52,008 bases of DNA from Nocardioidaceae bacterium (GTDB lineage Bacteria; Actinomycetota; Actinomycetes; Propionibacteriales; Nocardioidaceae), in contig JBOHDE010000003.1 in NCBI GenBank assembly GCA_050699035.1, positions 1 through 52,008 of the forward strand, given 5' to 3'. The translations under genes were made by a program, and so were the position numbers. The notes under the pieces were generated by a model. It was not told the origin of the DNA, made no database searches, and saw only the letters and a list, made by a program, of their open reading frames with translations. Positions 154 to 18,708 of this stretch are shown one piece after another. The stretch's first letter is position 1; each line of letters opens with the position of its first letter.

Positions 154-160
154 CCCCTTC

Positions 161-221
161 CGCTGAGTGTGACGTTTTCGACGACACGCCGGCGTGTCGC
201 GTCGAAAACGTCACGGTCAGC
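161..221. repeat. REP-like palindromic element, copy 1; probable bidirectional terminator between convergent genes
   Basis: The arms GTGACGTTTTCGACGACACGCC (169-190) and GGCGTGTCGCGTCGAAAACGTCAC (191-214) are near-perfect reverse complements. The element sits between the sucD stop (151-153) and the stop of the minus-strand gene (217-219). A related copy lies at 17345-17409. Confidence 0.7.
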
Positions 222-1083
222 GGGCGAGGCGCTCGGCGGCGACCGGCAGGGTCCGGATCTGCGGGTGCAGCGGCAGCCCGGTATCGGCCTCCTGCTCCTT
301 GTTGTAGGCCCAGTTGTTGTCCTGGCCTCGGACGATGATGCCGACCACCACCACACGGTCGCCGTTGATCACGACTCCCATGCTGTCGAAGAAGCCGACC
401 TCGGACTCGAGCGTGTCGGCGTACATCCCCTCGATGTACTGCGCCTCACCCTCCGGAACCGCAAGCCGTACCCAGTCCCCCATGTCAGGCCGGGGCTCAC
501 CGCCTCGTTCGCGGACGAGCTGTTCGCAACCGTCGCCGGCCTCGATCAGCAGGTCGTAGACGGCGCGGGCGGCGTCGGCGGAGCCGAACTGCATCGTGAT
601 CGCCTCCGCCTGGGGATTCTCGCCGGCGCTGCGGAACTTCTCGTGCCACAGCTCGGCCACGCCTCGATCCGCCGACAGGTTTGCGAGGACCTCGGTGTAG
701 CAGCCGGTGTCGCTGGACTCGAAGGACTCGGTCAGGCCGATCGAACCCCACTCGACTTCCGGACCCCAAGCGATGTCGCCGGCAGTCAGCCGCTGGTCCT
801 CGGTCAGCTCGGGAGCAGTCTCGATCGGCGTCTGAGTCGGGGCAGGTGTCCGTGTCGGCGCGATCGGCTGCGGAGCGGTCCCGAGGACATTGCCCGCCGC
901 GGCGACGGCCACACCGGCGCACAGAGCCACGGCGAGGCAGGCCGTGGCGACAGTGGTCGCGACCCGGCGGCGGTGCCGGCGGGCGCCCCGTGCGCGTACG
1001 TCGACTGCAGGGAGCGGGGTGGCCAGATCCCGACCTTCGCGGGCGAGCGCGCTGAGCTCGGCGATCGGGTCGCGGTCAGGCAT
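217..1083 (-). CDS. putative anti-sigma factor / single-pass membrane protein with an extracytoplasmic Cys-containing domain
   Basis: 288-aa ORF. Its start overlaps the stop of the upstream ECF sigma gene by 8 nt (1076-1083). It has an Arg-rich cytoplasmic N-terminus, one TM segment (TVATACLAVALCAGVAVAAAG), a Pro/Thr linker and a ~200-aa ectodomain with two Cys. Confidence 0.6.
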   Translation of the reverse strand: MPDRDPIAELSALAREGRDLATPLPAVDVRARGARRHRRRVATTVATACLAVALCAGVAVAAAGNVLGTAPQPIAPTRTPAPTQTPIETAPELTEDQRLTAGDIAWGPEVEWGSIGLTESFESSDTGCYTEVLANLSADRGVAELWHEKFRSAGENPQAEAITMQFGSADAARAVYDLLIEAGDGCEQLVRERGGEPRPDMGDWVRLAVPEGEAQYIEGMYADTLESEVGFFDSMGVVINGDRVVVVGIIVRGQDNNWAYNKEQEADTGLPLHPQIRTLPVAAERLAR

Positions 1084-2880: not shown

Positions 2881-4740
2881 CTACGAGGGGATGGTGCTCA
2901 GCCGCTCACCGGCCCGGATCACCAGGGCGCGGAACCGTTGCGGTGTCATGTCGTAGCTGCCGCTCGGTGAGAGGTTCACCTGGGCGATGTGTTTGCCGCG
3001 CCGGACCAGGGCGACGCGGTACGTCGCCGTCCGGCCCTCGGACAGCTCGAACTGGAACCGCCACACCCGGGCCTTCGTGCGCCCGGAGGTGATCGTCGTG
3101 GCGTCCGAGACGGTGGCGTTGATCTCGCGGTCGGCGCAGTCCGCGACCGTGTCCTCGACCTTGCGGACGAAACGTGCGGCCGTGTTGGAGCTGCCGAACG
3201 TGCCGACCGTCTCGGACAGCCCGAAGCCGTCCGGCACGAACTTCGCCTTCGGGATCACGAAGATCCGGGCGCGGGCCTTGCTGCTCTTGGCGAAGGTGGC
3301 CCGGTCGCAGGGCGTCGACGACGGGTTCTTGCCGGCCGACTTGGGCTTGGTGGCGGCCCACGGACTGGCGACACCCTTGATCTGGGGCAGGTCGAGCGGT
3401 GCCAAGAACCCTGGGTTGGACTGCAGCGCCGGCACGGGTACCGGGCGCAACGTCGGTTTCGCCGTCGCACAGCTGCCCTCGCCGACCTTGCAGACGGTCG
3501 AGACGGTCATCGCCAACCGCTTCACCACGCGTGCCTCGGAGATCGGCTTCTTGCCCGTCGTGGTGGCGACCACCGCGCTGGTGAGCTTGCCCGTACGGGC
3601 GACGCCGACGGTGATGTTCTTCGCCCGCTTGCCACCCTCGCGCAGCGACACCACGGTGGCCTGGTCGCCGAGACCGCCGACGGTCTGCACCTGCAGTAGC
3701 TGGATGCTCTCCTGCGTACAGGTGGCGAACCACGAGCGCATCTCGGCGTAGGCCCTGGACGCGTGCTTGGCCGAGGTGGACTGCTCGATCACCTGCAAGG
3801 CGTTCGTGTCGGGCGCGCCGACCGCCTCGAACTGGCGGATGAGCACCTGCTTGGCGTCCGGGTCGGCGAGGGTGCGCCGCTGGCACAGGGTGTACGCGCC
3901 GTCCTTGTTCAGCGGGCCGGACGTCGTCATCGCCGTACTCCACTGCGTGTGTTGCGGGCTCAGCGAGCGCAGGTCGCGCAGCGCGAGCAGGTCGCTGGTG
4001 CCCAACGTCCGAGCCGCGGTCGGTTCGGCCTTCGGCGCCGGCTTGGCCCCGGCCGGCGTGTCGTCGGTCACCGACGCGGCGGTGGTGGGTGGGGACTGCT
4101 GGGTGATCAGCGAGCCGCCACCGACGATCAGTGCGGCCGCCGCGGCGACGCCGAGAACGGTGTGCTGGCGCAGCCGCTTGTCCCCGGCCCGGCGTACCGC
4201 GGACGCCCGCATCAGGGTGATCCGGGCGGCGTCTGTCTCGATGTCGCGCAGGGCCTGCTCGAGTGTGGGCCCGGGCGTGGGCTGGTCGGCGCCCGCGGCC
4301 GAGTCGTCCCAGGCGGCCTCCGCGCGGATGAGCGTGTTCGCCGCGGCCGTGGTGGTCACGCCGGCCTCGCGCGCGAGCTGGTCGTCGGGTAGCCCGGCCA
4401 GGTGGTGCAAGACGGCGACGCGGCGTTGGTTGATCGACAGGTCCTGCAGCCGGTCGGCGTACGCATCCGCCGGGACCGCGCCCTGCGACCGCGGTCGGCG
4501 GTAGTGGAGCCGACGGCGCCGCGGCAGTTGGCTCCCGGCGACCCGCCAGGCCTCGGCGCGCACCCAGGCGACCGGGTCGTCGAGGTGGGTCACCTTCGAC
4601 CAGTGGCTCCACGCATGCGCGAAGCCGTGCTCGACGGCAGAGGCCGCGCCGTCGACATTGCCGGTCAGAGCGTAGGTCTGGTGCAGCAGCGAGGCGCGGG
4701 TGCCGTGGTAGAACGCGTCGAAGTCGTCGACCCGTGACAT
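2881..4740 (-). CDS. sigma-70-like N-terminal domain fused to a TM helix and a large two-module extracytoplasmic domain (membrane-tethered sigma/anti-sigma-like protein)
   Basis: The ORF track gives 2881..4779. I prefer the start at MSRVDDFDAFYHG (4740). Residues 1-150 resemble degenerate sigma r2/r4 (DDPVAWVRAEAWRVA; LSINQRRVAVLHHLAGLPDDQLAREAGV). A TM segment (HTVLGVAAAAALIVGGGSLI) follows, then a ~400-aa ectodomain with paired Cys. Confidence 0.6.
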   Translation of the reverse strand: MSRVDDFDAFYHGTRASLLHQTYALTGNVDGAASAVEHGFAHAWSHWSKVTHLDDPVAWVRAEAWRVAGSQLPRRRRLHYRRPRSQGAVPADAYADRLQDLSINQRRVAVLHHLAGLPDDQLAREAGVTTTAAANTLIRAEAAWDDSAAGADQPTPGPTLEQALRDIETDAARITLMRASAVRRAGDKRLRQHTVLGVAAAAALIVGGGSLITQQSPPTTAASVTDDTPAGAKPAPKAEPTAARTLGTSDLLALRDLRSLSPQHTQWSTAMTTSGPLNKDGAYTLCQRRTLADPDAKQVLIRQFEAVGAPDTNALQVIEQSTSAKHASRAYAEMRSWFATCTQESIQLLQVQTVGGLGDQATVVSLREGGKRAKNITVGVARTGKLTSAVVATTTGKKPISEARVVKRLAMTVSTVCKVGEGSCATAKPTLRPVPVPALQSNPGFLAPLDLPQIKGVASPWAATKPKSAGKNPSSTPCDRATFAKSSKARARIFVIPKAKFVPDGFGLSETVGTFGSSNTAARFVRKVEDTVADCADREINATVSDATTITSGRTKARVWRFQFELSEGRTATYRVALVRRGKHIAQVNLSPSGSYDMTPQRFRALVIRAGERLSTIPS

Positions 4741-4892
4741 GCCACGCTCCCGGTTTGGTTTCGGCGGTCTGATCCTCACTGAAGGTACGGGAGGTCGGCA
4801 AGGGACGGAAATCTCCCGGTGACCGGGGTTACATCCCCCGCGGGGGCGTCGCTCGGCGTGTCCGCGCGCCTACTTCGGTCTCGGCGGCGACG

Positions 4893-6101
4893 ATGGGAGC
4901 GATGACTGACCTCCTGGGCCGAGCCGACCGCGGGGTCGAGGGCGCGGCTGTTCGCGGGAGTCGACAGGCGGAGCTGCCCGCGTCGGTCGCCGCGGCGGCG
5001 AGCGCCGTCGCCGCGGTGCTGTCGGGCCTCGCTGGGTGCCTGCTGCTGGCGATGGTCGGCTGGGTCGCCGGTCCGCGCGGCGAGGTGGTCGAGGGGGTAC
5101 GCGCCGGCGCGCTCGGCTGGCTGATGGGTCACGGCAGCGGCCTGCAGGTGGGTACGACCGAGATCAGCGCGACCCCGCTCGGCCTGACCCTGCTGCTCGG
5201 GGCGGTGGTCTGGCGCGGTGGCCGGTGGGCCGCCGAGCAGTCCGAGGTCGCCGACGCGCGAGCCGTCGTCCTGTCGGCCGCCACCTTGGCTGCGTGCTAT
5301 GCCGCACTGGCGACTCTGGTGTCCCTGCTCGCGTCCAGCGACGCGGCGTCGGTGTCGCCGCTGCGGGCGATGGTCGGCTCGTTCCTCGTCGCCGTGGTCT
5401 TCGGCGGTGCCGGCCTCGCCGTCGGTGCGGGCGGCCTGCGCGGACTGACCGCGGGTTGGCCGGACGATGTCGTCGCCGCCCTCCGCGGCGGGCTGGGCAC
5501 GGTCGCGGTGCTGCTGGGCCTCGGCGCGGCCGCGGTGACGGTGGGCCTGGTGGCTGACTTCGGTCGGGCCGCGACGGTGGCCGACTCGCTGGCGGCTGGG
5601 ACGGTCGGCGGTGCCGTCCTCACGGTCCTCGGCGTTCTCCTGCTGCCGAACGCCGCCCTGCTCGCGTCGGCGTACCTGATGGGTCCGGGCTTCGTCCTCG
5701 GCACCGGCACCCTGGTCGCCCCGACCGGTGTCGACCTCGGCCCGGTGCCCGCCGTACCCCTGCTCGCGGCCCTGCCCAGCGACGGTGCGGCGCCGGTCTG
5801 GGCGCTGCTGTTGGTCGGCGCGCCGGTGCTGGCGGGAGCGATCGGGGCAGCGGTCGCGCTGCGCGCCCATCCGGTCGACGCGCTCGACGCCGCCGCGCTC
5901 CGCGGTGGGGTGGCTGGTGTGCTCGGCGGCACCGTCGCCGGGCTGCTGACCGGGCTGGCCGGGGGCTCCGTCGGGCCGGGCCGGATGGCCGACGTCGGCG
6001 CCTTGGTGTGGCAGTGCGCGGGGGTCGCCGGCGTGGCGGCGGGCATCGGCGGAGCCGTCGCCGGTCTCGTCCTCGCGTGGCGGGCTCGACGCCGGGCTTG
6101 A
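4893..6101 (+). CDS. polytopic Ala/Gly/Leu-rich integral membrane protein, PerM/DUF6350-like by position and composition
   Basis: 402 aa with many predicted TM helices. It sits immediately upstream of purN-purH, as mycobacterial perM (Rv0955) does. The family assignment rests on synteny and composition only. Confidence 0.55.
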
Positions 6102-6116
6102 CACCACCGTCAGCCG

Positions 6117-6764
6117 TTGACCGCAGCGCCGTCGCGGATCGCTATCGTGTGCGGCGTGTCCGCCCGCGTCGTCGTCCTCGTCTCCGGGGCCGGAACCAAC
6201 CTGCAGGCCCTGCTCGACGCGTGCGCGGACCCTTCGTACGGTGCGACCGTGGTCGCGGGCGGCGCCGACCGCGACGGCATCGAGGGGCTGGCCCGAGCCG
6301 AGCGAGCCGGCCTGCCGACATTCGTGCACCGGGTCGGCGAGTACGCCAGCCGGGCGGAATGGGACAAGGCGCTGACCGCGTCGGTCGGGTCGTTCGAGCC
6401 GGACCTGGTCGTGCTGGCCGGGTTCATGAAGCTCACCGGCGAGGCGTTCCTGGCGGCGTTCGGCGGCCGGACGGTCAACACCCACCCGGCGCTGTCGCCG
6501 TCGTTCCCCGGCATGCACGGCCCGCGGGAGGCCCTGGAGTACGGCGTCAAGGTCACCGGCTGCACGCTGTTCGTCGTCGACGCCGGTGTGGACAGCGGGC
6601 CAATCGTGGCGCAGGCCCCCGTACCCGTCGCCGCCGACGACACCGTGGACTCGCTGCACGAACGCATCAAGACCGTCGAGCGGGCGATGCTCGTCGACGC
6701 GGTGGGCCGGATGGCCCGCGAAGGATTCACCGTCTCCGGCAGGAAGGTTCGGTTCGGCTCGTGA
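6117..6764 (+). CDS. purN: phosphoribosylglycinamide formyltransferase
   Basis: Contains the [17 protein letters not shown] motif plus [13 protein letters not shown]. Position 6117 is a TTG, and in-frame GTGs at 6147 and 6156 are more likely true starts. The stop overlaps the purH GTG (GTGA at 6761-6764). Confidence 0.9.
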
Positions 6765-8711: not shown

Positions 8712-9581
8712 GTGACGGCACAGATCTTGGACGGCAAGGCCACGGCGGCGACCATCAAGGCCGAGCTGACCCGGCGCGTCGAGCGGCTGAAGTCCCAGGG
8801 CATCGTGCCCGGGCTCGGCACCGTCTTGGTGGGTGACGACCCTGGCAGCCACTCCTACGTGGCCGGCAAGCACCGCGACTGCGCCCAGGTCGGCATCGAG
8901 TCGGTCCGGGTCGACCTGCCGGCCGACGTCAGCCAGCAGGAGCTCGAGGCGCGGGTCGCCGAGCTCAACGCCGACCCTGCCATCACCGGCTACCTCGTGC
9001 AGCTGCCGCTCCCCGGCGACCTGGACGACAACCGCGTGCTCGGCCTGGTCGACCCGGCCAAGGACGCCGACGGCCTGCACCCCACCAACCTCGGGTGGCT
9101 CGTCCTCGGCCGGCCCGCCCCCCTGCCGTGCACACCGCGTGGCATCGTCGAGCTGCTGCGCCGGTTCGAGGTCGAGATCGCCGGTGCGGAGGTCTGCGTG
9201 ATCGGCCGCGGGATCACGGTCGGCCGGCCGTTGGGGCTGCTGCTCACCCGGCGCAGCGAGAACGCCACCGCGACCCTCACCCATACCGGCACCCGCGACC
9301 TGGGCAGCCACACCCGCAAGGCCGACATCGTGGTCGCCGCGGCCGGCAACCCCGGCCTGGTGACGGCCGACATGCTCAAGCCCGGCGCGGTCGTCCTCGA
9401 CGTCGGCCTCACCCGCACCGACAAGGGGCTCGTCGGCGACGTACACGCCAGCGCTCACGACGTGGCGTCGTGGATCGCGCCGATGCCCGGCGGAGTGGGA
9501 CCGATGACGCGGGCGATGCTGCTCAGCAACGTCGTCGAGGCCGCCGAGCGGCAGGTCGAGCGGTCAGCCGTCTCCGCATGA
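8712..9581 (+). CDS. folD: bifunctional methylene-THF dehydrogenase / methenyl-THF cyclohydrolase
   Basis: Starts at a GTG: [19 protein letters not shown]. Carries the motifs [25 protein letters not shown] and MPGGVGPMT. 289 aa. Confidence 0.95.
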
Positions 9582-9874
9582 CCCAACCCTCAGCACCAAC
9601 GCCGGGAGGCCGGCCGCTCGGCACCGTGGCGTTCGCCGCCGCCGTGCTGCTCGGAGCGTTCGGTGTCGTGCTGGCGATGACCGGTCCTTGGCGGCAGGGC
9701 GTCGGCTACCTCGGCTCGTCGGTGCTGATCGCGTGCCTGGCCCGGTTCGCCCTGCCGGACCGGATGGCCGGCATGTTGCGGGTACGCCGCAAGTCCGTCG
9801 ACGTGGTGATCCTGGCCGCGCTCGGCCTCGGTGTTGTGGCGCTCGCCCTCGTCGTACCCGACTCCCGACCCTGA
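9578..9874 (+). CDS. small two-TM membrane protein (DUF3017-like) coupled to folD
   Basis: An ATGA overlap with the folD stop (9578-9581). 98 aa with two hydrophobic helices. A small membrane protein downstream of folD is common in actinobacteria. Confidence 0.55.
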
Positions 9875-10861
9875 TCAGATCAGGCCGAGGCCCTTGACCG
9901 CCTCGCGCTCCTCGGCGAGCTCGGCCGCGCTGGCGTCGATCAGGCCGCGGGAGAAGTCGTTGATCTCCAGCCCCTGCACGATCTCGTACGACCCGTCCTT
10001 CGTGGTCACGGGGAACGACGAGATCAGACCCTCCGGCACGTCGTACGAGCCGTCCGACGGGACCGCCATCGAGACCCAGTCGCCGTCCTTCGTGCCAAGC
10101 AGCCAGTCGTGGGCATGGTTGGCCGTCGCCGACGCGGCCGAAGCCGCCGACGACGCACCACGCGCCTCGATGATGGCCGCCCCACGCTTCTGCACCGTCG
10201 GGATGAACTCGTTCTCCAACCAGGCTTGGTCATTGACCAGCTCAGCGGCGTTCTTGCCGCCGACCTCGGCGTGGAAGATGTCGGGGTACTGGGTGGCCGA
10301 GTGGTTGCCCCAGATAGTCAAGTGCCGGATGTCGTTGACGCTGGCGCCGGTCTTGGCGGCGAGCTGGGCCAGCGCGCGGTTGTGGTCGAGCCTGGTCAGG
10401 GCTGTGAACCGCTCCCGCGGGATGTCGGGCGCGTTGCTCATCGCGATCAGCGCGTTGGTGTTGGCCGGGTTGCCGGTCACCGTGACCCGGATGTCGTCGG
10501 CCGCGTGGTCGTTCAGGGCCTTGCCCTGCGGCTTGAAGATGCCGCCGTTGGCCTCGAGCAGGTCGCCGCGCTCCATCCCCTTGGTGCGCGGGCGCGCGCC
10601 GACCAACAGCGCGACGTTGGCGCCGTCGAAGACGACATTCGGGTCGTCGCCGGTCTCCACCCCCGCCAGGGTCGGGAACGCGCAGTCGTCGAGCTCCATC
10701 ACCACACCCTCGAGCGCCTTCAGGGCGGGGGTGATCTCGAGCAGCCGCAGCTCGACCGGGGTGTCGGGGCCGAGCAGGGCGCCGCTGGCGAGGCGGAAGA
10801 GAAGGCTGTAGCCGATCTGGCCGGCGGCTCCGGTGACCGCCACCTTGACGGGAGTGCTCAC
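9875..10861 (-). CDS. mdh: malate dehydrogenase
   Basis: [27 protein letters not shown] (Rossmann fold) and [12 protein letters not shown]. 328 aa, LDH-like MDH family. Confidence 0.95.
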
Positions 10862-10924
10862 GACACCCTCCTGGGTTCTCGGGGGTAGACAGTCGGACGC
10901 TAGCAGCGCGCCGCGCCCGGCCGG

Positions 10925-11665
10925 TCACCGCCCCGCAACGCGTCCCGGGAGCGGCCGAAGGTCGAACTCGTCGTCGCTCATCCGCCAGATCGCCACCGAC
11001 ACCATCACGACCCCCAGGGTGGTCAGACCCCACCCACCGAGTACGTCGAGCGGTCGGCTCGGCACGATCACGGCCGCGACCAGGTGCACCGGCTGGGACA
11101 CGGCGAGCACGACGCCGACCCACCGCGCGACGACACCGGAGCGGGCCAGTGCGATGCCGAGCAGGATCATCCCGAGGATGTGGCCGACCACCCAGCCGAA
11201 GCTGGAGATGATCGCGACCGGGTGGTCGTACGTGGCGTCGACGAGGCCGGCGATCTCGGTGACGGAGTAGCCCTCGCGGCCCATGATGTACGTCAGGTAG
11301 TCCACGTTGCCGGCCGCGCCCCAGTTGGCGTACGCGACAAAGCTCAGCGCGGCGCCGAGCGTGGCCAGCAGCGGAGCCCCGCGCCGGGCGACGTACCCCA
11401 GCACCAGCATGGAGAACAGCAGGGGCGGGGTGAAGATCATCGCGATCCACACGATGGCGTTCATCGCACCCGGGTCGGCCACCGAGTGCTGGACAATCGT
11501 CTCGGTGTCCTGGTCGGTCCAGTACGGCAGGATCGCCCGGACCGTCAGCACGCCCAGTGGTCCGATCGGCAAGGTGACGGCGATCAGCACCCGCCAGAAC
11601 CGGCGCAGGTCCCTGGGTCGGCGGGTTGACGTGGTGTCCGAACGGGTCATGGCTGGGGTGGTCAT
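10925..11665 (-). CDS. hypothetical polytopic membrane protein
   Basis: 246 aa with about 6 hydrophobic helices. No motif recognised. Coding is supported by length and membrane-protein composition. Divergent from the adjacent histidine kinase. Confidence 0.5.
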   Translation of the reverse strand: MTTPAMTRSDTTSTRRPRDLRRFWRVLIAVTLPIGPLGVLTVRAILPYWTDQDTETIVQHSVADPGAMNAIVWIAMIFTPPLLFSMLVLGYVARRGAPLLATLGAALSFVAYANWGAAGNVDYLTYIMGREGYSVTEIAGLVDATYDHPVAIISSFGWVVGHILGMILLGIALARSGVVARWVGVVLAVSQPVHLVAAVIVPSRPLDVLGGWGLTTLGVVMVSVAIWRMSDDEFDLRPLPGRVAGR

Positions 11666-11768
11666 CGCGGCCCTCCGAGGCTCGTCGTGATGTCATCTCC
11701 ACGATGGGTTCGGCCGGTCCGGGGCGCATCCGTGCGACCGCTGGTTCGTCCTCCGTGCCAACACGGAG

Positions 11769-13760
11769 GTGGGGCGGTCCGGCTCGCTCTATCGTGAGAA
11801 CGTGCCGTGGGCTCGGAGAGTCTCGATTGCAGCAGTTGCCGCTGCGGGGCTGGTCGTTGTCGGCGGCGTGACCGGGCTGTCCGCGCCTCTCACCGCCGGC
11901 GAGCTCGGCTGGCTGCTCGGCGGGCTTGTCACGTCGGTGCCGGCCGTCGCACTCGGCCTGCTGGTCTCCCGTCGGCAGCCGGCCAACGCGGTCGGTGCGC
12001 TGCTGGTCCTGGCCGGGTTGGCCGGTGTGGTGATGGCGACCTTCGACGGGTACCTCGCTGCCGCCGCCAGTGGCGCGCTGCCCGTCGGCGACGTGCTGGT
12101 CTCCGTCACCCAGGGCGCCTGGATGCTGTGGTACCTCCCGTTCGCCGTTCTGCTGCTGGTGTTTCCCGACGGCCGGCTGCTGAGCCCGCGCTGGCGGCTC
12201 GTCGCCGTGGCGCTGCCGTGCGTCGCCGTGGTGTTCAGCCTGCTGGTGTCGATGCTGCCCGGTCCTTACACGGCACCGGTCGAGGATGCCGCCCACGTCC
12301 TGGGGACATCGCGGGTCGCCGGGTACGCGGGGCTGGGCCTGCTGCCGGTCTTCATGGGGCTGCTGGTCGCCTCGCTGGCTGCCGTCGTCGTCCGCTACCG
12401 GTCGGCCGGTCCGCGGGTCCGTACCCAGCTGCGCTGGCTGCTCCTCGCCGGCCTGACGGTCCCGGGCACACTGCTGATCTGCTGGCTCAGCTACCTGCTC
12501 CTCGGCACCGCCGACCTGGTGGTCGTCGGCCTGGTCGCCATGTACGTCGCGATCCCGGCAGCGACGGCGGTCGCCGTCCTTCGCCGCGACCTGTACGACG
12601 TCGACCGGGCGTTGGTGGCCGCGGCCTCGTCCGGCATCCTCGCCACCGTCCTGCTCGGCGTCTTCACCGTCGTGTCGGCGCTGGCCGGGCTCGCGGTGGG
12701 CCGTGACTCCGCACTGGTCGCGGTGATCGCGACCGCCCTGTGTGCGCTCGCGCTGAACCCACTCCGGTCGCGGGTCGCGCGCTGGCTGGGTCGGCTGCTC
12801 TACCCGGACCGGGAGCGGGCGCTGGCGGCGATCGACGAGCTGCGCCGGCGCGTGCACGCCGGGGACGACGATCCGGAGCAGCTGGAGGCGGTGCTGCGCC
12901 AGGCCCTTCGCGACGACGGCCTGCGGATCGGCTTCCTGCCGCCCGGTGCCGACCGTGTCGTGGACGGCGAGGGAGCGGCGCTGGAGGACGGACGGGCGAG
13001 GCCGATCATGCTGGCGGGGGAGCGGATCGGCATGCTCGTACCGGGTCCGGACGCGGAGCACCCACCGCCGCGGGAGGTGGCCGACGCCTCCGCCGTGCTG
13101 GTGGAGATGGTCGGGCTCCGCCGCGAGCTCGGTCGTGCGCTGCGCGAGGTGGAGGCGAGCCGCGCCCGGCTGCTGCGGGCCGGGTACGACGAACGGCACC
13201 GGCTCGAGCAGGACCTGCACGACGGTGCCCAGCAGCGGCTGGTGGCCCTCGGGATGACGCTGCGGGTCGCCCAGCGCCATCTCCCCGACGTGGCGTCCGA
13301 CCTGCACGGGGTGATGGACCAGGCGGTCGCGGAGATCACCACGGCGGTCGCCGAGCTCCGGCAGATCGCCCACGGCCTCCGGCCGAGCAGTCTCGACGAC
13401 GGGCTCGCCGCCGCGCTGACCAACCTCACCCGGCTGGCGCCGATGCCGATCGGCCTGGAGATGAGCGCCGGCGAGCTGCCCGACGACGTGAGCACGACCG
13501 CCTACTACGTCGCCAGCGAGGCGGTCGCCAACGCCGTCAAGTACGCCGAGGCGCAGCGGATCGACCTCCAGGTGGCGCAGGTCGACGGCCACGTCCGCGT
13601 GACGGTCCGCGACGACGGCCGGGGCGGTGCCGCCGTACGCCCCGGTGCCGGCCTGGCCGGTCTGTCCGACCGGGTCGGCGCGCTCGGCGGGAGGCTGCAC
13701 GTCACCAGCGGTGCGGGCACCGGCACCGTGGTCGAGGCGGTGCTGCCATGCGGATCGTGA
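11769..13760 (+). CDS. sensor histidine kinase, NarL/LuxR-partner type (HisKA_3), with a multi-TM N-terminus
   Basis: H-box ERHRLEQDLHDGAQQRLVAL. The HATPase region contains YYVASEAVANAVKYA ... DDGRGGA ... GLAGLSDRVGALGG. Start is the GTG at 11769, or possibly 11802. Confidence 0.85.
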   Translation: MGRSGSLYRENVPWARRVSIAAVAAAGLVVVGGVTGLSAPLTAGELGWLLGGLVTSVPAVALGLLVSRRQPANAVGALLVLAGLAGVVMATFDGYLAAAASGALPVGDVLVSVTQGAWMLWYLPFAVLLLVFPDGRLLSPRWRLVAVALPCVAVVFSLLVSMLPGPYTAPVEDAAHVLGTSRVAGYAGLGLLPVFMGLLVASLAAVVVRYRSAGPRVRTQLRWLLLAGLTVPGTLLICWLSYLLLGTADLVVVGLVAMYVAIPAATAVAVLRRDLYDVDRALVAAASSGILATVLLGVFTVVSALAGLAVGRDSALVAVIATALCALALNPLRSRVARWLGRLLYPDRERALAAIDELRRRVHAGDDDPEQLEAVLRQALRDDGLRIGFLPPGADRVVDGEGAALEDGRARPIMLAGERIGMLVPGPDAEHPPPREVADASAVLVEMVGLRRELGRALREVEASRARLLRAGYDERHRLEQDLHDGAQQRLVALGMTLRVAQRHLPDVASDLHGVMDQAVAEITTAVAELRQIAHGLRPSSLDDGLAAALTNLTRLAPMPIGLEMSAGELPDDVSTTAYYVASEAVANAVKYAEAQRIDLQVAQVDGHVRVTVRDDGRGGAAVRPGAGLAGLSDRVGALGGRLHVTSGAGTGTVVEAVLPCGS

Positions 13761-14389
13761 TCGGCGAGGACTCGGCGCTGTTCCGGGAGGGTCTGGCGAG
13801 CCTGTTGACCGACTCGGGACACGATGTGGTGGCGCGGGCGACCGACGGGCCCGGCGTACTCGCCGCGATCCGGGCGCACCGGCCCGACCTCGCATTGGTC
13901 GACGTGCGCATGCCGCCCGACCACACCGACGACGGTGCTCGGGCGGCAGCGCAGGCCCGGGCGGAGTTCCCGGAGCTGGGCATCGTCCTGCTGTCGCAGC
14001 ACGTCGAGACCCGGCACTCGGTGGCGCTGGTCACCAGCGGGCGGTTCGGCTATCTGCTGAAGGACCGGGTGCTGGATGTCGACGACTTCATGGACACGCT
14101 CGAGCGGGTAGCGGCCGGCGGTTCTGCGCTCGACCCTGAGGTGGTGGCGCGGCTGCTGGCCGTACGCCGAGAGCCCGAGTCGCCACTGACTCCGCGGGAG
14201 GCCGAGGTGCTGGCGCTGATGGCGGAGGGCCGCACGAACGCGGGCATCGCGCGACGGCTCTGGCTGACCGCGCGGACGGTCGAGACCCACGTCAGCAGCA
14301 TCATGGCCAAGCTCGGCCTGTCCGCGAGCGACGACGACCATCGACGGGTCCTTGCCGTACTCGCCTACCTCGACACCGCCGCCCGCTGA
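13748..14389 (+). CDS. response regulator, NarL/LuxR family
   Basis: MRIVIGEDSALFREGL ... PDLALVDVRMPP (receiver Asp) plus LTPREAEVLALMAEGRTNAGIARRLWLTARTVETHVSSIMAKLG (LuxR HTH). It overlaps the kinase stop by 13 nt. Confidence 0.9.
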   Translation: MRIVIGEDSALFREGLASLLTDSGHDVVARATDGPGVLAAIRAHRPDLALVDVRMPPDHTDDGARAAAQARAEFPELGIVLLSQHVETRHSVALVTSGRFGYLLKDRVLDVDDFMDTLERVAAGGSALDPEVVARLLAVRREPESPLTPREAEVLALMAEGRTNAGIARRLWLTARTVETHVSSIMAKLGLSASDDDHRRVLAVLAYLDTAAR

Positions 14390-14396
14390 CCTCGGG

Positions 14397-14416
14397 CGTG
14401 GGGCGGTGACCCCACG
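14397..14416 (+). terminator. short stem-loop after the response regulator
   Basis: CGTGGGG-CGGTGA-CCCCACG, a 7-bp stem 8 nt after the stop codon. There is no clear U-tract. Confidence 0.4.
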
Positions 14417-14469
14417 AGCGCTTAGGGTGACTGGTCGAGGGGGAGACCGACGCGAGCCAGGACGAGGAA

Positions 14470-14769
14470 ATGGCTGACATCTACATCGACTTCGCGGCGC
14501 TGGAGCGCACCAAGTCCAACCTCGGTGATGTGGAGGACCTGCTCAGTGGTCCGTGCAAGGGCATGGCCGACCTTCCCACCGAGGCGGCGGGCCACGAGGA
14601 CCTGATCTCCAAGCTCCGTGACTTCGGTGGCGAGTGGGACTACGGCATCGGCAAGCTCGGTGAGTTCAGCGGCGGAGCGGTTGACGCGCTCAAAACCATC
14701 GGCGACGCGTTCCTCGAGCTCGACAAGCAGCTCACGGACTCGTTCAAGCCCAAGGCGGGCTCGGCGTGA
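14470..14769 (+). CDS. small (99 aa) predicted all-helical protein, WXG100/Lap-like candidate partner of the downstream T7SS-type protein
   Basis: GAGG lies 5 nt upstream of the ATG. The sequence is acidic with helical heptad character (DFAALERTKSNLGDVEDLL ... GGEWDYGIGKLGEF ... ALKTIGDAFLELDKQL). Its stop overlaps the next gene's start (GTGA at 14766-14769). Confidence 0.55.
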   Translation: MADIYIDFAALERTKSNLGDVEDLLSGPCKGMADLPTEAAGHEDLISKLRDFGGEWDYGIGKLGEFSGGAVDALKTIGDAFLELDKQLTDSFKPKAGSA

Positions 14770-15893
14770 CCACGTACGACGCCCTCGGGTTCAACCCCGC
14801 ACCCGGCAGCCAGAGCCAGGGCGAGGTGATGGCCGGTCGGCTGCGGGCCGCGACCGAGGCCCTCGGCAACATCAACGACGTCCTCAGCGGCACGGGGAAC
14901 CAGGAGTGGGAAGGCAAGACCGCGGTCGCGTTCCGTGGGCTCGTCAAGGAGGATCTGCAGCCCCGGATCCAGGAGGCGTACGAGAGCTTCGGCACCGCCT
15001 CACGGGCGCTCGACCGGTGGCTGCGTGACCTGGACGGGTTCCAGTCGCGGGCCGAGGCGCTCGAGCGGGAGGCCGAGGCAGCCCGCGCCGACGTCGCCGC
15101 CGCGCAGTCCGCCGTCGACGGCATGGGTGATGCGCCCACGGACGACCCGGCCGCGAAGAAGGAGTACGACAAGACCGTCGGCGAGAACAACGCGGCGCTG
15201 ACGAGCAGCGAGTCGACGCTGGACGGCATCATCGCGCGGGCCAACACACTGGCCGGCGAGGCGTCCGACTCCGCAACGACGACGGCCGGGGCGCTCGACA
15301 CCGCGATGAAGGCGGCACCGGACGAGCCCGGTCTCTGGGACCGGATCACCGGGGCGCTGGAGGGGATCGGCGAGTTCCTCGGCGACGTGGTGGAGTTCGT
15401 CAAGAACAACTGGTGGGACCTGCTGCACAAGCTGGTCAACATCACCGCGACCGTGCTGTCGATCGCCTCGCTGTTCTGCCCGGCCCTCGCGCCGTTCGCC
15501 CTCGCGTTCGCCGTCGCCGACGTGCTGATGTCAGGCATCGACTGGGCGCGAGGCGTACCCGGGGCGAAAGAGGCGTTCCTCACCGGTGCGTTGGGTCTGG
15601 TGGGCGGCTTCGCGGTCGGCAAGCTGGTCGGCACGTTCATGAGCGCCGCCGGCCCCGCGTTGGCGACCGGCCCGTTCCGGGTGATGGCGTCGGGAGGTGC
15701 GGCCAGCATCGCCGCCCCTGCTGCGGCCGTCCTCTCGTACAACCCGGCGTTCGGTCCTGCGTTGGCCGGCTACATGGTGATCAAGACCAAGGACGCCACG
15801 GATGGCGCGGACGCGATCCAGAGCCTGCTCGGCAACAACACCTACTACAGCGACAGCCTGGCCTCCGGCTGGCAGAAGGCGCGGGCCAACTGA
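14766..15893 (+). CDS. putative T7SS-secreted protein: N-terminal WXG-type helical domain, coiled-coil linker, C-terminal Gly/Ala-rich membrane-inserting domain
   Basis: Opens with ALGFNPAPGS and has a canonical W48-E49-G50 (NQEWEGKTAVAFRG). A coiled coil follows (RAEALEREAEAARADVAAAQSAV). The C-terminus carries 3-4 hydrophobic or glycine-zipper helices (ITATVLSIASLFCPALAPFALAFAVADVLM; GALGLVGGFAVGKLVGTFMSAAG). Confidence 0.6.
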   Translation: MTTYDALGFNPAPGSQSQGEVMAGRLRAATEALGNINDVLSGTGNQEWEGKTAVAFRGLVKEDLQPRIQEAYESFGTASRALDRWLRDLDGFQSRAEALEREAEAARADVAAAQSAVDGMGDAPTDDPAAKKEYDKTVGENNAALTSSESTLDGIIARANTLAGEASDSATTTAGALDTAMKAAPDEPGLWDRITGALEGIGEFLGDVVEFVKNNWWDLLHKLVNITATVLSIASLFCPALAPFALAFAVADVLMSGIDWARGVPGAKEAFLTGALGLVGGFAVGKLVGTFMSAAGPALATGPFRVMASGGAASIAAPAAAVLSYNPAFGPALAGYMVIKTKDATDGADAIQSLLGNNTYYSDSLASGWQKARAN

Positions 15894-16618
15894 TGGCGAC
15901 CGCGACCCTGCCACGTCAGGACCTCTGGGTGCTGGTGCCGCCCGGCTGGATCGAGTTCAGCGCGTTCTCCAGCGACGAGGCGGCGACGCGGTGGTTCGAC
16001 CGGTTGCTCGCCAAAACCCCGGACCTGTTCGACGAGCAGACCCGGGTGGCGCTGCGCGTGACCTATGCGCAAGTACGCAGCCAGATCCCCGCCGGTCTGG
16101 TCGACTCCGCGGGGGCGCTGATCACGACCCTGCTCGACGACACGGTCACGATGTGGCAGTTCAGCATGCGCGTACTCGACCTGCCGCGGAGCGGTGACAT
16201 CAACCCGATGGCGGTGGTCGAGCGCTTTCTCGAGTCGGAGCAGGGCAGGTCGGAGGTCGGCGAGGACGACATCGTCGAGTCGTTCCAGACCGAGGACGGC
16301 CGCGACGGCGTCGCGATCCACACCACGGCCACGGCGGTCGACGACGGTGGGCAGCTCGTCGCCAACGTCCCCGGCACCGATCCGGCCGCCCTCGGAGTCG
16401 TGTACGCCGCGGTCCGGCTGCATCGCCAGGAGGGCAGCGAGGCCGATCGGCTGGCCGTGGTCACCGGCATCGCACCGAATATCGAGCAGCGGCTCCCGAT
16501 GTCGATCATCGCTGCCCAGCTGACCCTCTCCGCCGAGCTGCGCGACGAGGGAGCCGACCCGCCCGAAGGCAGCATCGATGTCGACACGACGGGGCGTTTC
16601 GACCAGACTGCGGGCTGA
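15893..16618 (+). CDS. acidic soluble protein of unknown function (candidate chaperone or immunity factor of the cassette)
   Basis: The ATG shares its A with the upstream TGA (TGATG at 15891-15895). 241 aa with no TM segments and many Asp/Glu. The long ORF-track entry 15413..16618 is trimmed to this coupled start. Confidence 0.5.
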   Translation: MATATLPRQDLWVLVPPGWIEFSAFSSDEAATRWFDRLLAKTPDLFDEQTRVALRVTYAQVRSQIPAGLVDSAGALITTLLDDTVTMWQFSMRVLDLPRSGDINPMAVVERFLESEQGRSEVGEDDIVESFQTEDGRDGVAIHTTATAVDDGGQLVANVPGTDPAALGVVYAAVRLHRQEGSEADRLAVVTGIAPNIEQRLPMSIIAAQLTLSAELRDEGADPPEGSIDVDTTGRFDQTAG

Positions 16619-17334
16619 TGACTTCGCAGCAGGCACCGCTGATCGGTGACGATGCGCGCGCCTATGTCGAGCGGGACTACGACGCGCTGGGGTCTGACGA
16701 CCTGCCGGGCCAGCTGTGGGAACGCACCAAGGCGCTGAAGGTCCTCGCTCGCGAGTGCGACTCGTTTGCTCGGCTGTTGTCCGGTCTTGCTGCCTGGGCC
16801 CTCGCCGTCGCCGGTGGCGCGCTGGTGGCGCTGGCCGTGTGGAACGACGTGAACGGCGTCCTCAGGGTCGTCGGTGTCGTCGTCGGTGTGCCGCTCGTGG
16901 CCGCGGCGGCGGTGCTCGGCCGCCGGGTCTGGCAGGCCGGGCGTGTCGTGGTCGACGCGTTCTGCTGGTGGACGCTGCTGCCGGAGAAGCTGGCCGGCGG
17001 CGGAGCCGGTGTCGAGGACTGGCGGTCGTCGCCAGTTCGGGATGCGGTGGCGGCGCGCGTGTTCGTGTTCCAGGGCTGGCGGCCGCTGCGAATCGGCCTC
17101 GGCGCGGTGGCGTTCCTGAGCCCGGCGATCTTCTTCGCGCTCGCCGTCGAGGGCGGACCGCGCTATCGGCCGACCTGGCACGAGGGTCAGACGGCGGCGC
17201 TCTGGGTGATCGGGCTGACGCTGGTCGTCGCCGGCTTCGCGGCCGGTGTGGTCCTGATGGGTGGACAGTGGCGAGCCAACCTCGCCCACTCCCAGCGCGA
17301 CCCCGTGCAGCGGAAGATCTTCGGCCAGCGCTGA
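16618..17334 (+). CDS. four-TM membrane protein (candidate immunity protein)
   Basis: TGATG coupling at 16616-16620. 238 aa. Two helical hairpins: LSGLAAWALAVAGGALVALAVW / VVGVVVGVPLVAAAAVLG and LRIGLGAVAFLSPAIFFALAV / ALWVIGLTLVVAGFAAGVVLMGG. Confidence 0.5.
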   Translation: MTSQQAPLIGDDARAYVERDYDALGSDDLPGQLWERTKALKVLARECDSFARLLSGLAAWALAVAGGALVALAVWNDVNGVLRVVGVVVGVPLVAAAAVLGRRVWQAGRVVVDAFCWWTLLPEKLAGGGAGVEDWRSSPVRDAVAARVFVFQGWRPLRIGLGAVAFLSPAIFFALAVEGGPRYRPTWHEGQTAALWVIGLTLVVAGFAAGVVLMGGQWRANLAHSQRDPVQRKIFGQR

Positions 17335-17344
17335 CCACCAGAGC

Positions 17345-17409
17345 CCGGTGAGTGTGACGTTCTGGTGCGACACGCCGGCGTGTCGCGACCAAAACGTCAC
17401 ACTCACCGG
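17345..17409. repeat. REP-like palindromic element, copy 2; probable terminator of the four-gene cassette
   Basis: CCGGTGAGTGTGACGTTCTGGTGCGACACGCC | GGCGTGTCGCGACCAAAACGTCACACTCACCGG. It shares the core GAGTGTGACGTT.T.G..CGACACGCCGGCGTGTCGCG.C.AAAACGTCAC with copy 1 at 161-221. Confidence 0.7.
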
Positions 17410-17444
17410 GAGGGGGCGGTGGGTGAGGGTGGCGGCTGAGATAT

Positions 17445-17456
17445 CTTGACGTCAAG
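17445..17456. promoter_or_regulatory. perfect 12-bp palindrome CTTGACGTCAAG upstream of icd (contains a TTGACG -35-like hexamer)
   Basis: Read directly from the sequence, 35 nt upstream of the icd ATG. Its function is inferred only. Confidence 0.3.
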
Positions 17457-17490
17457 CAATCTTCTCCGCAGCAGACCGGGAGCCGTCTCC

Positions 17491-18708
17491 ATGGCCAAGA
17501 TCAAGGTGCAGAACCCCGTCGTCGAGCTCGACGGCGACGAGATGACGCGGATCATCTGGCAGTTCATCAAGGACCGCCTGATCCACCCGTATCTCGATGT
17601 CGACCTCAAGTACTACGACCTGGGCATCGAGAACCGCGACGCCACCGACGACCAGGTCACGGTCGACGCGGCGCACGCGATCAAGGAGCACGGCGCCGGC
17701 GTCAAGTGCGCGACGATCACGCCGGACGAGGCGCGGGTCGAGGAGTTCGGCCTGAAGCAGATGTGGCTGTCACCCAACGGCACGATCCGTAACATCCTCG
17801 GCGGCGTGATCTTCCGCGAGCCGATCGTGATCTCCAACATCCCGCGGCTGGTGCCCGGTTGGACCAAGCCGATCATCGTCGGCCGCCATGCACACGGTGA
17901 CCAGTACAAGGCGACCAACTTCAAGGTGCCCGGCGCCGGCACCGTGACCATCACGTACACGCCGAAGGACGGCTCCGAGCCGATCGAGCACGAGATCGTC
18001 CAGATGCCGGAGGACGGCGGCGTCGTGATGGGTATGTACAACTTCAACAAGTCGATCGAGGACTTCGCGCGGGCGTCGCTCTCGTACGGCCTGCAGCGCG
18101 GGTACCCCGTCTATATGTCGACGAAGAACACCATCCTCAAGGCGTACGACGGCGCCTTCAAGGACATCTTCGCCGATGTGTTCGAGCGTGAGTTCAAGGC
18201 CGACTTCGAGAAGGCCGGCCTGACCTACGAGCACCGGCTGATCGACGACATGGTCGCCGCGGCGCTCAAGTGGGAGGGCGGCTACGTCTGGGCCTGCAAG
18301 AACTACGACGGCGACGTCCAGTCCGACACCGTCGCGCAGGGCTTCGGCTCGCTCGGCCTGATGACGTCGGTGCTGATGACGCCGGACGGCAAGACGGTCG
18401 AGGCCGAGGCCGCACACGGCACCGTGACCCGGCACTTCCGCCAGCACCAGCAGGGCAAGCCCACCTCGACCAACCCGATCGCGTCGATCTTCGCCTGGAC
18501 CGGTGGTCTGAAGCACCGCGGCAAGCTGGACGGCACCCCTGAGGTGACCGGGTTCGCCGAGACGCTGGAGCAGGTCTGCATCGAGACGGTCGAGAGCGGC
18601 AAGATGACCAAGGACCTCGCGCTGCTGGTCGGACCCGACCAGGCCTTCCTCACCACCGAGGAGTTCCTCGCGGCGCTGGACGAGAATCTGGCTGCCAAGC
18701 TCGGCTGA
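17491..18708 (+). CDS. icd: NADP-dependent isocitrate dehydrogenase (eukaryote-like homodimeric type)
   Basis: [31 protein letters not shown] ... [14 protein letters not shown] ... NYDGDVQSD. The start is trimmed to the ATG at 17491. Confidence 0.95.

Follow-up and report, generated by a model that had tools for sequence, protein, structure and literature searches.

The DNA considered here is a stretch of 52,008 nucleotides from a Nocardioidaceae bacterium (assembly GCA_050699035.1, contig JBOHDE010000003.1, positions 1 to 52,008, forward strand), referred to as a whole as the window. At 14470-17334 it carries a cassette of four translationally coupled open reading frames on the + strand (ORF1 to ORF4). 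The cassette is best explained as an accessory effector module of type VII secretion (T7SS; here the actinobacterial kind, T7SSa), consisting of a membrane toxin, a chaperone and an immunity protein, an explanation that we hold to be probable with modest confidence. One part of it stands on firmer ground than the whole: ORF1 and ORF2 are very likely a T7SS substrate pair, as predicted from conserved motifs, family matches and gene neighbourhoods.

The targeting domain of ORF2 and its superfamily

ORF2 starts with ...ALGFNPAPGS, contains W48-E49-G50 and is rich in alanine and glutamate (34% together) over residues 90-183. A first reading of the DNA made from the letters alone (the sequence-only reading) had pointed to this opening, to the WXG motif and to the Ala/Glu-rich stretch, all of which can indeed be read in the sequence, and W48 and G50 are invariant in an alignment of 26 family members. 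ORF2 matches the Pfam family PF21725 (T7SS_signal) with 23.1 bits (E = 7.6e-5; gathering cut-off 27 bits) and TIGR03930 (WXG100) weakly (E = 0.027). At least 20 close homologues carry a precomputed PF21725 match, and Streptomyces relatives linked to ORF2 by profile reach 27.4-41.8 bits with PF21725 and up to 26.9 bits with WXG100 (cut-off 27.3 bits). These sequence comparisons place ORF2 in the PF21725 "putative T7SS-secreted protein" superfamily, as one of its divergent members. It should be noted that the label of a T7SS substrate is not new: NCBI and UniProt already annotate relatives as "putative T7SS-secreted protein" or as "WXG100 family type VII secretion target".

There are 35 full-length homologues of ORF2. 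An exhaustive search with the close-family profile against 1.84 billion representative sequences yielded a superfamily of 1,239 clusters (50% identity) at E<=1e-3, and of 473 clusters at E<=1e-10. Among the matches listed nearly all proteins have 360-520 amino acids and are aligned from residue 2 to between 200 and 350. Relatives were examined at 50 genome loci, mostly of Streptomyces and often several per genome. WxG is present in 50/50 of them (at position 48-63) and an N-terminal GFxPxPG motif in 49/50, and their N-terminal domains are mutually alignable in 2445/2450 pairs.

In the AlphaFold2 (AF2) model of ORF2, residues 16-40, 53-118 and 128-183 are helical and the WXG motif lies in a loop and the first helical turn. 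The predicted local distance difference test score (pLDDT) is 70-96 over residues 60-170 and below 50 in the WXG loop (44-57). The helices around the WXG turn, the PF21725 match and the WxG motif in every relative uphold the earlier proposal of a WXG-type helical domain at the N-terminus. By hydropathy ORF2 has no N-terminal hydrophobic signal peptide. LXG (PF04740) gave no match at E<=1 for ORF2 and none at E<=0.01 for 10 relatives, and a search of PDB sequences with the ORF2 profile returned nothing useful.

ORF1, the predicted partner of ORF2

ORF1 is small (99 amino acids), acidic (isoelectric point, pI, 4.35), as described before, and has no hydrophobic segment. In nearly all of the 50 genome loci a homologue of ORF1 is found just upstream of the ORF2 homologue, with a single gene in between in one subclass. 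In the ORF1 superfamily (55 sequences) F52 and W56 are invariant and Y58-G59-I60 nearly so; at position 81 there is always F or Y (55/55), and at position 85 always D or E (55/55). These two positions are about 14 residues from the C-terminus. YxxxD/E is the export motif of T7SSa substrates and FxxxD the motif of Lap proteins; because the ORF1 motif has the position and form of these, it is read as an export-type motif. An FxxxD-type motif is present, for example, in LapX3 (PMC12744356). The constant upstream gene and the invariant [F/Y]xxx[D/E] motif thus bear out the assignment of ORF1 as the small partner of ORF2.

No meaningful Pfam or NCBIfam family was found for ORF1. Its 60 best listed matches to PDB sequences include neither PE nor Esx chains, and what the search returned was coiled coils of designed proteins and SNAREs. 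A common origin of ORF1 and the WXG domain of ORF2 by duplication was considered and is not detectable (hhalign probability 0.2%).

Hairpin, glycine zipper and variable tails

Hydropathy places hydrophobic segments of ORF2 at residues 219-259 and 270-289. Residues 274-289 (GALGLVGGFAVGKLVG) form the series G277xxxG281xxxG285xxxG289, of which G277, G281 and G285 are invariant in the 26 family members, and residues 219-340 consist to 35% of glycine and alanine. The Gly/Ala-rich hydrophobic C-terminal half with glycine-zipper character, recognized already in the sequence-only reading, is therefore real. It had, however, been taken as a whole for the payload of the protein, which does not hold for the hairpin: this belongs to the conserved part of the superfamily and not to its variable tail. 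A hydrophobic hairpin at about residues 220-290 is present in all 50 relatives except two truncated ORFs (L022, L051), and its region can be aligned across the Streptomyces relatives. The glycine zipper is restricted to the tail class of the window. Within the close family, residues 184-300 (amphipathic helix, hairpin and zipper) are the best conserved, with a pairwise identity of 0.69-0.72 as compared to 0.46-0.58 in the N-terminal domain; the mean for the hairpin region (196-262) is 0.71-0.72.

The last 115 amino acids of the superfamily members fall into at least nine mutually unrelated classes. Streptomyces genomes hold several ORF2-like copies of different tail classes, and the membrane proteins encoded downstream differ by tail class; at three loci (L014, L018 and L032) the downstream membrane gene is in tandem. 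The C-terminal half of ORF2 has no Pfam, NCBIfam or PDB sequence match. Judged from the sequences, several features (polymorphism of the tails, class-specific downstream genes, duplicates) fit a polymorphic conflict system. Because this pattern comes together with the glycine zipper of TelE, EsxX and TspA, T7SS toxins that depolarize membranes (PMC12744356), a toxin with its immunity protein is inferred, and ORF2 may be an antibacterial membrane toxin, an assignment for which we see about even chances.

Two neighbourhoods may be mentioned here. Within a few kb of an ORF2-like gene, locus L019 encodes an RHS-repeat protein (2881-6348, 1155 amino acids) and locus L048 a deaminase plus SUKH-4 protein (14929-17691, 920 amino acids), which suggests that these are toxin islands.

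ORF3 and its relatives

ORF3 has a pI of 4.24 and is without any hydrophobic segment, in agreement with its first description as acidic and soluble. The AF2 model (pLDDT 86, predicted TM-score 0.82) is an α/β sandwich. Foldseek finds the uncharacterized protein 3lyd from Jonesia as the best match (E = 1.4e-4), followed by MTC28, LpqN and PsbP. Structures of SciW, an Eag chaperone of type VI secretion (T6SS) (6xrr, 6xrb and 9mvg, including a complex with the transmembrane (TM) domain of Rhs1) match with E = 0.014-0.045 and a probability of 0.80-0.90, the values for the Rhs1 complex being E = 0.014 and 0.89. On the basis of the model, ORF3 can confidently be placed in the Mog1/PsbP-like α/β fold class, which includes the T6SS Eag chaperones. 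At the level of sequence, ORF3 has no Pfam match at E<=1, DUF1795/DcrB included, and none among PDB sequences at E<=10; two ORF3-like Streptomyces proteins had no DUF1795 match in Pfam at E<=0.1. An EspG-like fold was also considered and is unsupported, there being no EspG structure in the top 50 Foldseek matches.

Nearly all Streptomyces relatives of ORF2 are accompanied by a soluble protein of 205-270 amino acids. In tail class A its gene sits between the ORF1-like and the ORF2-like genes, i.e., upstream of the latter. Comparison of ORF3 by hhalign with a family of 46 such Streptomyces proteins gave a probability of 91% (E = 1.1e-6, 206 of ~240 columns) and with a second soluble family one of 89% (unrelated control families, P 0.25-0.84). 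By this profile evidence the Streptomyces companions are distant homologues of ORF3. That ORF3 would have no counterpart in described systems, as was thought at first, has therefore to be corrected: there are counterparts by fold (Mog1/PsbP-like proteins, Eag) and by role (ExiAB, PMC12744356). Because the ORF3-like proteins follow the conserved hairpin rather than the variable tail, a role as chaperone of TM helices is favoured, and ORF3 is predicted, on a slight balance of probability, to be a chaperone or neutralizer of the hydrophobic region of ORF2. Neutralization in the cytoplasm as by ExiAB may, by analogy, be part of the same job.

ORF4, the candidate immunity protein

ORF4 is basic (pI 9.7) and has four hydrophobic segments by hydropathy (52-76, 77-105, 156-181 and 190-218), which agrees with the four TM helices assigned to it before. 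Its family shares the loop motif VWxAGRxVVDAFCWWTLLPERL. Wherever ORF4 was found, ORF1-3 accompany it in unchanged order; it does not occur with other tail classes, whose downstream membrane proteins differ. Because of this specificity for the glycine-zipper tail class, ORF4 is a candidate immunity protein, and whether it is one we would put at even odds.

As for ORF1, no meaningful Pfam or NCBIfam family was found for ORF3, ORF4, the Streptomyces ORF1-like and ORF3-like proteins or the downstream membrane proteins; the only, weak, matches in this whole set, ORF1 included, were to EspC (E = 0.05) and, for one Streptomyces downstream membrane protein, to Holin-X (E = 2.6e-4).

The syntenic, 97%-identical metagenome-assembled genome of locus L006 has, between the response regulator gene and ORF1, an additional gene for an ORF4 paralogue (8962-9606; 214 amino acids, four helices). 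It shows 31% identity and lacks the conserved CWWTLLPERL loop, and the window has no counterpart at the matching site (14391-14395). As far as the two sequences tell, close strains thus differ in whether they have this immunity-like gene, a presence/absence polymorphism.

Distribution of the cassette

The gene order of the cassette is found again in about 12 loci that are independent of each other. They represent at least four neighbourhoods without relation to one another and two orders (Propionibacteriales and that of Curtobacterium). Exact or near-exact copies are present on three short contigs, and diverged cassettes with 46-74% identity have all four genes in unchanged order; indeed, all contigs of sufficient length hold all four. 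The cassette adjoins a Tad pilus locus and nadABC in L004 and L058, lies beside dcd in L005/L008 and L007, is syntenic with the window (purH-folD-mdh...icd region) in L009 and L006, and is located between rpmB/rpsN and fur-znuABC in Curtobacterium sp. NPDC087082 (L056). Four more metagenome contigs carry it. Among 5.8 billion sequences there are only about 35 protein clusters of ORF2, 33 of ORF3 and 26 of ORF4, and among 185,579 species genomes only five loci of the close family. The cassette is thus an accessory module and not a housekeeping operon, as the few loci and the order kept across contexts substantiate. ORF3 diverges faster (52-59% identity) than ORF1 and ORF2 (65-74%).

Three observations belong to these loci. 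The Tad/Flp pilus locus beside the cassette is complete (TadE, T2SSF x2, T2SSE) and occupies 1-406 and 3348-9462 in L004 and 1488-7619 in L058. From L006 the segment corresponding to window positions 11476-12822 (1.35 kb; the 5' end of a DUF4386 gene and, of the histidine kinase, the membrane part at the N-terminus) is missing; either a deletion in L006 or an error of assembly may be the cause. One ORF2 homologue with 58% identity (P0025) is recorded in UniRef as coming from the Firmicute Neobacillus citreus; that the family is high-GC and actinobacterial in character points to a contaminated or misassigned record.

Link of relatives to the secretion machinery

Tail class A relatives (476-508 amino acids) lie within the Streptomyces ESX locus in 11/14 class-A loci, and so does L051. 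There the ORF2 relative is encoded between EccB (PF05108, E = 2.7e-71), two S8 mycosin-like proteases and a 1317-amino-acid multi-FtsK (FtsK_SpoIIIE) EccC-like ATPase. The other tail classes, that of the window included, are encoded away from the ESX locus, which is the same pattern as the remote encoding of Firmicute LXG toxins. In L004 (908-kb contig), a gene for a 1491-amino-acid multi-FtsK (EccC-like) protein is located about 10 kb from the cassette, just beyond the Tad locus.

An example of the class-A arrangement is L025 (1-20951, Streptomyces sp. NPDC058691) with EccB, the two S8 mycosin-like proteases and the ORF1-like, ORF3-like (247 amino acids) and ORF2-like (505 amino acids) genes, together with a 1-TM protein, GNAT acetyltransferases and the 1317-amino-acid EccC-like ATPase. 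ESX loci of this type are also found in L030, L032-L036, L039-L042 and L051. In them, too, the ORF1-like, ORF3-like and ORF2-like genes are translationally coupled.

Proposed mechanism and alternatives

In the mechanism that we infer, ORF1, a protein of about 100 amino acids with a C-terminal [F/Y]xxx[D/E] motif, would pair with ORF2, which bears the conserved TM hairpin and after it the family-specific glycine-zipper tail. ORF3 would bind the hairpin and keep the hydrophobic helices of ORF2 soluble and harmless in the cytoplasm of the producer, much as Eag or ExiAB do for their clients. A T7SS encoded elsewhere would then export ORF2, which would enter the membrane of a neighbouring cell, oligomerize via the glycine zipper and dissipate the membrane potential. 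ORF4 would block ORF2 in the producer and its kin.

Several findings weigh against such a mechanism. The 52-kb window contains no homologue of EccB, EccC or MycP (tblastn, E<1e-6), so that the absence of T7SS core genes noted earlier stands, and no gene for a protein of more than 900 amino acids. No similarity in sequence between ORF1 and structures of PE, Esx, EspC or Lap can be detected. The model of ORF2 is poor in the C-terminal half (pLDDT <50), and with the whole model Foldseek retrieves from the PDB generic long-helix BAR matches alone (E>=0.06), which are uninformative. Pfam recognizes no known toxin domain in any tail, neither in that of ORF2 nor in those of its relatives. The membrane region of the close family is under strong purifying selection without obvious diversification, and the narrow range of lengths in the superfamily (360-520 amino acids) together with a member fixed at the ESX locus could fit a physiological substrate. 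The similarity of ORF3 to Eag is weak (TM-score 0.27-0.42, E ~1e-2) and is not accompanied by a DUF1795 sequence match. Finally, relatives of ORF4 do not outnumber those of ORF2, and a metagenome scan for orphan ORF4 genes found complete cassettes only, the scan having used a pattern from the loop that the divergent paralogue lacks.

The main alternative is a T7SS-dependent module with a physiological function at the membrane or surface, in which ORF2 is inserted into the envelope of the producer itself. ORF2 could then serve as a channel, anchor a displayed tail, or act in development or envelope remodelling, with ORF3 as its insertion chaperone and ORF4 as a membrane partner or receptor rather than an immunity protein. 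The TM hairpin common to the superfamily, the one subclass fixed in Streptomyces ESX loci, the uniform lengths without a recognizable toxin domain, the purifying selection on the membrane region and the strict association of ORF4 with the cassette would all be expected of it, and it is general knowledge that the phenotypes of Streptomyces ESX mutants are developmental and not competitive. It does not, however, account well for unrelated polymorphic tails with class-specific downstream membrane proteins and several classes per genome, for the patchy spread over at least four unrelated contexts and across orders, for an extra divergent ORF4 paralogue in one strain and none in a 97%-identical one, or for the RHS and deaminase toxin genes in some neighbourhoods. 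In addition, among the characterized T7SS substrates a glycine zipper marks depolarizing toxins (PMC12744356). We regard this alternative as unlikely, though as the most serious one.

A second alternative concerns ORF3 alone, which could be a cytoplasmic immunity protein for the zipper tail (ExiB-like) rather than a chaperone of the hairpin, ORF3 and ORF4 then being immunities for different compartments. EsxX sets the precedent, in that ExiAB is soluble in the cytoplasm and the membrane proteins ExiCD protect from outside. ORF3 follows directly after ORF2, is translationally coupled to it and diverges faster than ORF1 and ORF2. What makes this improbable is that ORF3-like proteins (hhalign 89-91%) also accompany tail classes without a glycine zipper, in class A even from a gene upstream of the ORF2-like one; these companions tie the protein to the shared N-terminal and hairpin part. 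This does not mean that one role precludes the other: chaperone and immunity functions are not mutually exclusive.

Very unlikely is an intracellular, non-secreted module of the toxin-antitoxin, abortive-infection or holin-like type, in which ORF2 would permeabilize the cell's own membrane upon a trigger and be restrained by ORF3 and ORF4 until then. A membrane-active protein with two co-transcribed candidate inhibitors would suit it, as would the lack of T7SS genes in the window and the weak Holin-X match (E 2.6e-4) of the one Streptomyces downstream membrane protein, but for an intracellular system the conserved export-type partner and the WXG domain would be superfluous, relatives are physically linked to ESX core genes, and there are no PADLOC, phage or plasmid matches. 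A housekeeping envelope operon of the family, for which only the purH-folD-mdh...icd region shared by the window, L006 and L009 speaks, is ruled out for practical purposes because clusters and loci are so few in such large collections and because other carriers have the cassette beside Tad/nadABC, dcd or rpmB/znuABC.

Comparison with known systems

The functionally closest described system is, by analogy, the EsxX system of S. aureus (LapX3/LapX4 - EsxX - ExiAB - ExiCD; PMC12744356), to which TelE/TipE and TspA/TsaI of the T7SSb are related (PMC10434224, PMC7456083). Both have, in the case of the cassette as predicted, one or two small helical partners carrying a motif of the FxxxD type, a substrate whose helical targeting domain at the N-terminus is joined to a C-terminal glycine-zipper membrane domain, a soluble cytoplasmic handler of the hydrophobic segment and a polytopic membrane protein encoded downstream. 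In the case of EsxX the soluble ExiAB sequester the glycine zipper in the cytoplasm (PMC12744356). There is, however, no sequence homology, and the cassette has no match to LXG (PF04740), DUF5344/5082, DUF5085 or DUF5079/5080. Its host belongs to the Actinomycetota and hence to the T7SSa rather than the T7SSb side; where the EsxX system has two partners, a soluble heterodimer and two 6-TM proteins, it has a single partner, a single soluble protein and a single 4-TM protein; and it has an extra conserved TM hairpin between targeting domain and tail. The zipper itself follows the extended (G/A/S)xxxGxxxG pattern and lies in a hydrophobic helix of the C-terminal part, as in TelE, EsxX and TspA, and ORF4 is like TsaI, TipE and ExiCD in being multi-pass, encoded with the putative toxin and specific for its class.

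Polymorphic toxins led by a WXG domain were predicted by Zhang et al. 2012 (PMC3482391). ORF2 resembles these and the PF21725 proteins in its GFxPxPG motif, its WXG and its long helices; it differs by its score (23.1 vs. 27 bits) and by having a hydrophobic zipper tail and not a catalogued enzymatic toxin domain. With the LXG proteins it shares a general plan in which the targeting domain is conserved while the C-terminal domains attached to it vary and have their cognate genes downstream.

The mycobacterial PE-PPE-EspG triads of substrates and chaperone are similar in having a partner of about 100 amino acids whose YxxxD/E motif lies some 14 residues before the end, a larger partner in which the first helical turn contains WxG, a soluble α/β protein of about 240-280 amino acids that is dedicated to them and encoded alongside, and some members inside an ESX locus. 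However, nothing in the cassette matches PE (PF00934), PPE (PF00823) or EspG in Pfam at E<=1, its hosts have no mycomembrane, and ORF2 has TM helices.

Eag (DUF1795) chaperones serve T6SS prePAAR effectors with TM domains (PMC7773334). Here the likeness is that a soluble α/β protein, in broad terms of one fold class with Eag, is encoded beside an effector with a TM helical hairpin, the chaperone-like gene tracking the conserved TM region and not the variable toxin. Secretion system and phylum are different, ORF3 is about 90 residues longer, and eag genes lie upstream of the effector gene, ORF3 downstream.

In the literature on PF21725 and on actinobacterial T7SSa membrane toxins no paper on this family was found. 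The PE-like partner and its invariant motif, the TM hairpin, the Eag-like accessory protein and the tail-specific membrane proteins appear to be undescribed, and so does the glycine-zipper tail class with its strict four-gene cassette.

Gene layout and flanks

The features of the cassette are collected in Table 1. The genes overlap by GTGA at 14766-14769 (ORF1/ORF2) and by TGATG at 15891-15895 (ORF2/ORF3) and 16616-16620 (ORF3/ORF4), and the flanks are a HisKA_3/GerE two-component system and icd; coordinates, coupling and location had been given correctly in the sequence-only reading. In the leader of ORF1 a scan for consensus sigma-70 promoters found no match on the + strand.

Table 1. Positions in the window of the cassette genes, of the parts of their products and of the flanking elements
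Feature	Position	Strand	Description
Leader upstream of ORF1	14390..14469	+	Intergenic; GAGGA Shine-Dalgarno-like motif 4 nt before ATG
ORF1	14470..14769	+	99 amino acids, acidic; predicted export partner of ORF2 (PE/Lap-like role)
ORF1 F81-L-E-L-D85	14710..14724	+	[F/Y]xxx[D/E] T7SS export-arm-type motif, 14 residues from C-terminus
ORF2	14766..15893	+	375 amino acids; predicted T7SS substrate with membrane-active C-terminal half
ORF2 residues 1-185	14766..15320	+	Helical WXG / T7SS_signal-like targeting domain; GFxPxPG at residues 8-14
ORF2 W48-E-G50	14907-14915	+	WXG codons
ORF2 residues 196-262	15351..15551	+	Amphipathic helix (…FVKNNWWDLLH…), then hydrophobic helical hairpin with FCPALAPF turn
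ORF2 residues 270-289	15573..15632	+	Glycine-zipper helix, G277xxxG281xxxG285xxxG289
ORF2 residues 290-375	15633..15890	+	Gly/Ala/Pro-rich tail, family-specific; conserved end motif TYYSDSLxxGWxxAR
ORF3	15893..16618	+	241 amino acids, acidic, soluble α/β; predicted cytoplasmic chaperone/neutralizer of ORF2 hydrophobic segments
ORF4	16618..17334	+	238 amino acids, basic, four predicted helices; candidate cognate immunity protein
Palindrome 3' of ORF4	17344..17410		67 nt, perfect stem; REP-like; probable transcript end or stabilizer

The palindrome resembling repetitive extragenic palindromic (REP) elements that was said to end the cassette is indeed present. As RNA it folds with -65 kcal/mol (z = -7.9), and 0/200 shuffled sequences fold as well. 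It has no T-run and is therefore not a canonical intrinsic terminator. A second copy, about 85% alike, is found at window positions 160-224; both are GC-rich, 65-67 nt long, and have the core GTGAGTGTGACGTT...ACGCCGGCGT...AACGTCACACTCAC in common. We take the two, with fair confidence, for a dispersed REP-like intergenic element.

Codons ending in A or T make up 12.1% in ORF1, 4.7% in icd, 5.2% in mdh, 10.8% in the adjacent response regulator gene and 9.0% in the second kinase gene. The earlier counts for ORF1 and icd were thus correct, but the hint at a foreign origin of the cassette that could be read from them fails, the neighbouring response regulator being so similar; icd and mdh are the low outliers, as the most biased genes. 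On the - strand of the window, at 10242-13895, an open frame of 1217 amino acids, rich in Arg, Pro and Gly, runs antisense to the genes for DUF4386, the kinase and the regulator; it is not a gene but results from the GC content of 72-76%. PADLOC gave no match to a defence system, and tblastn with ORF2 found no match in plasmids and phages.

Meaning for actinobacterial type VII secretion

To our knowledge, T7SS are widespread in non-mycobacterial actinobacteria with few substrates known beyond EsxA/EsxB, and antibacterial T7SS toxins have been shown mainly in Firmicutes. The cassette and its superfamily of more than 1,200 clusters provide a concrete class of predicted substrates with a recognizable two-part export signal, a dedicated chaperone-like protein and variable tails. 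Even if the proposed mechanism should fail, a conserved cargo of the T7SSa would still be what the family stands for. If the mechanism is right, T7SS-mediated antagonism aimed at membranes would extend to soil actinobacteria, T6SS (with Eag) and T7SS would have converged in the export of proteins with TM helices, and the tails and their cognate proteins would be new pore- or channel-forming modules and inhibitors.

A wider reading is possible, if more tentative: the cassette may belong to a large uncharacterized actinobacterial effector system made up of a PE-like partner, a WXG substrate with a TM translocation hairpin, an Eag-like chaperone of TM helices, and polymorphic tails with cognate membrane immunity. 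This would be the T7SSa counterpart of the prePAAR/Eag logic of the T6SS and would equip Streptomyces, Nocardioides and Curtobacterium with an antibacterial weapon that depends on contact or secretion. The native substrates still missing for the non-mycobacterial ESX systems would thereby be identified.

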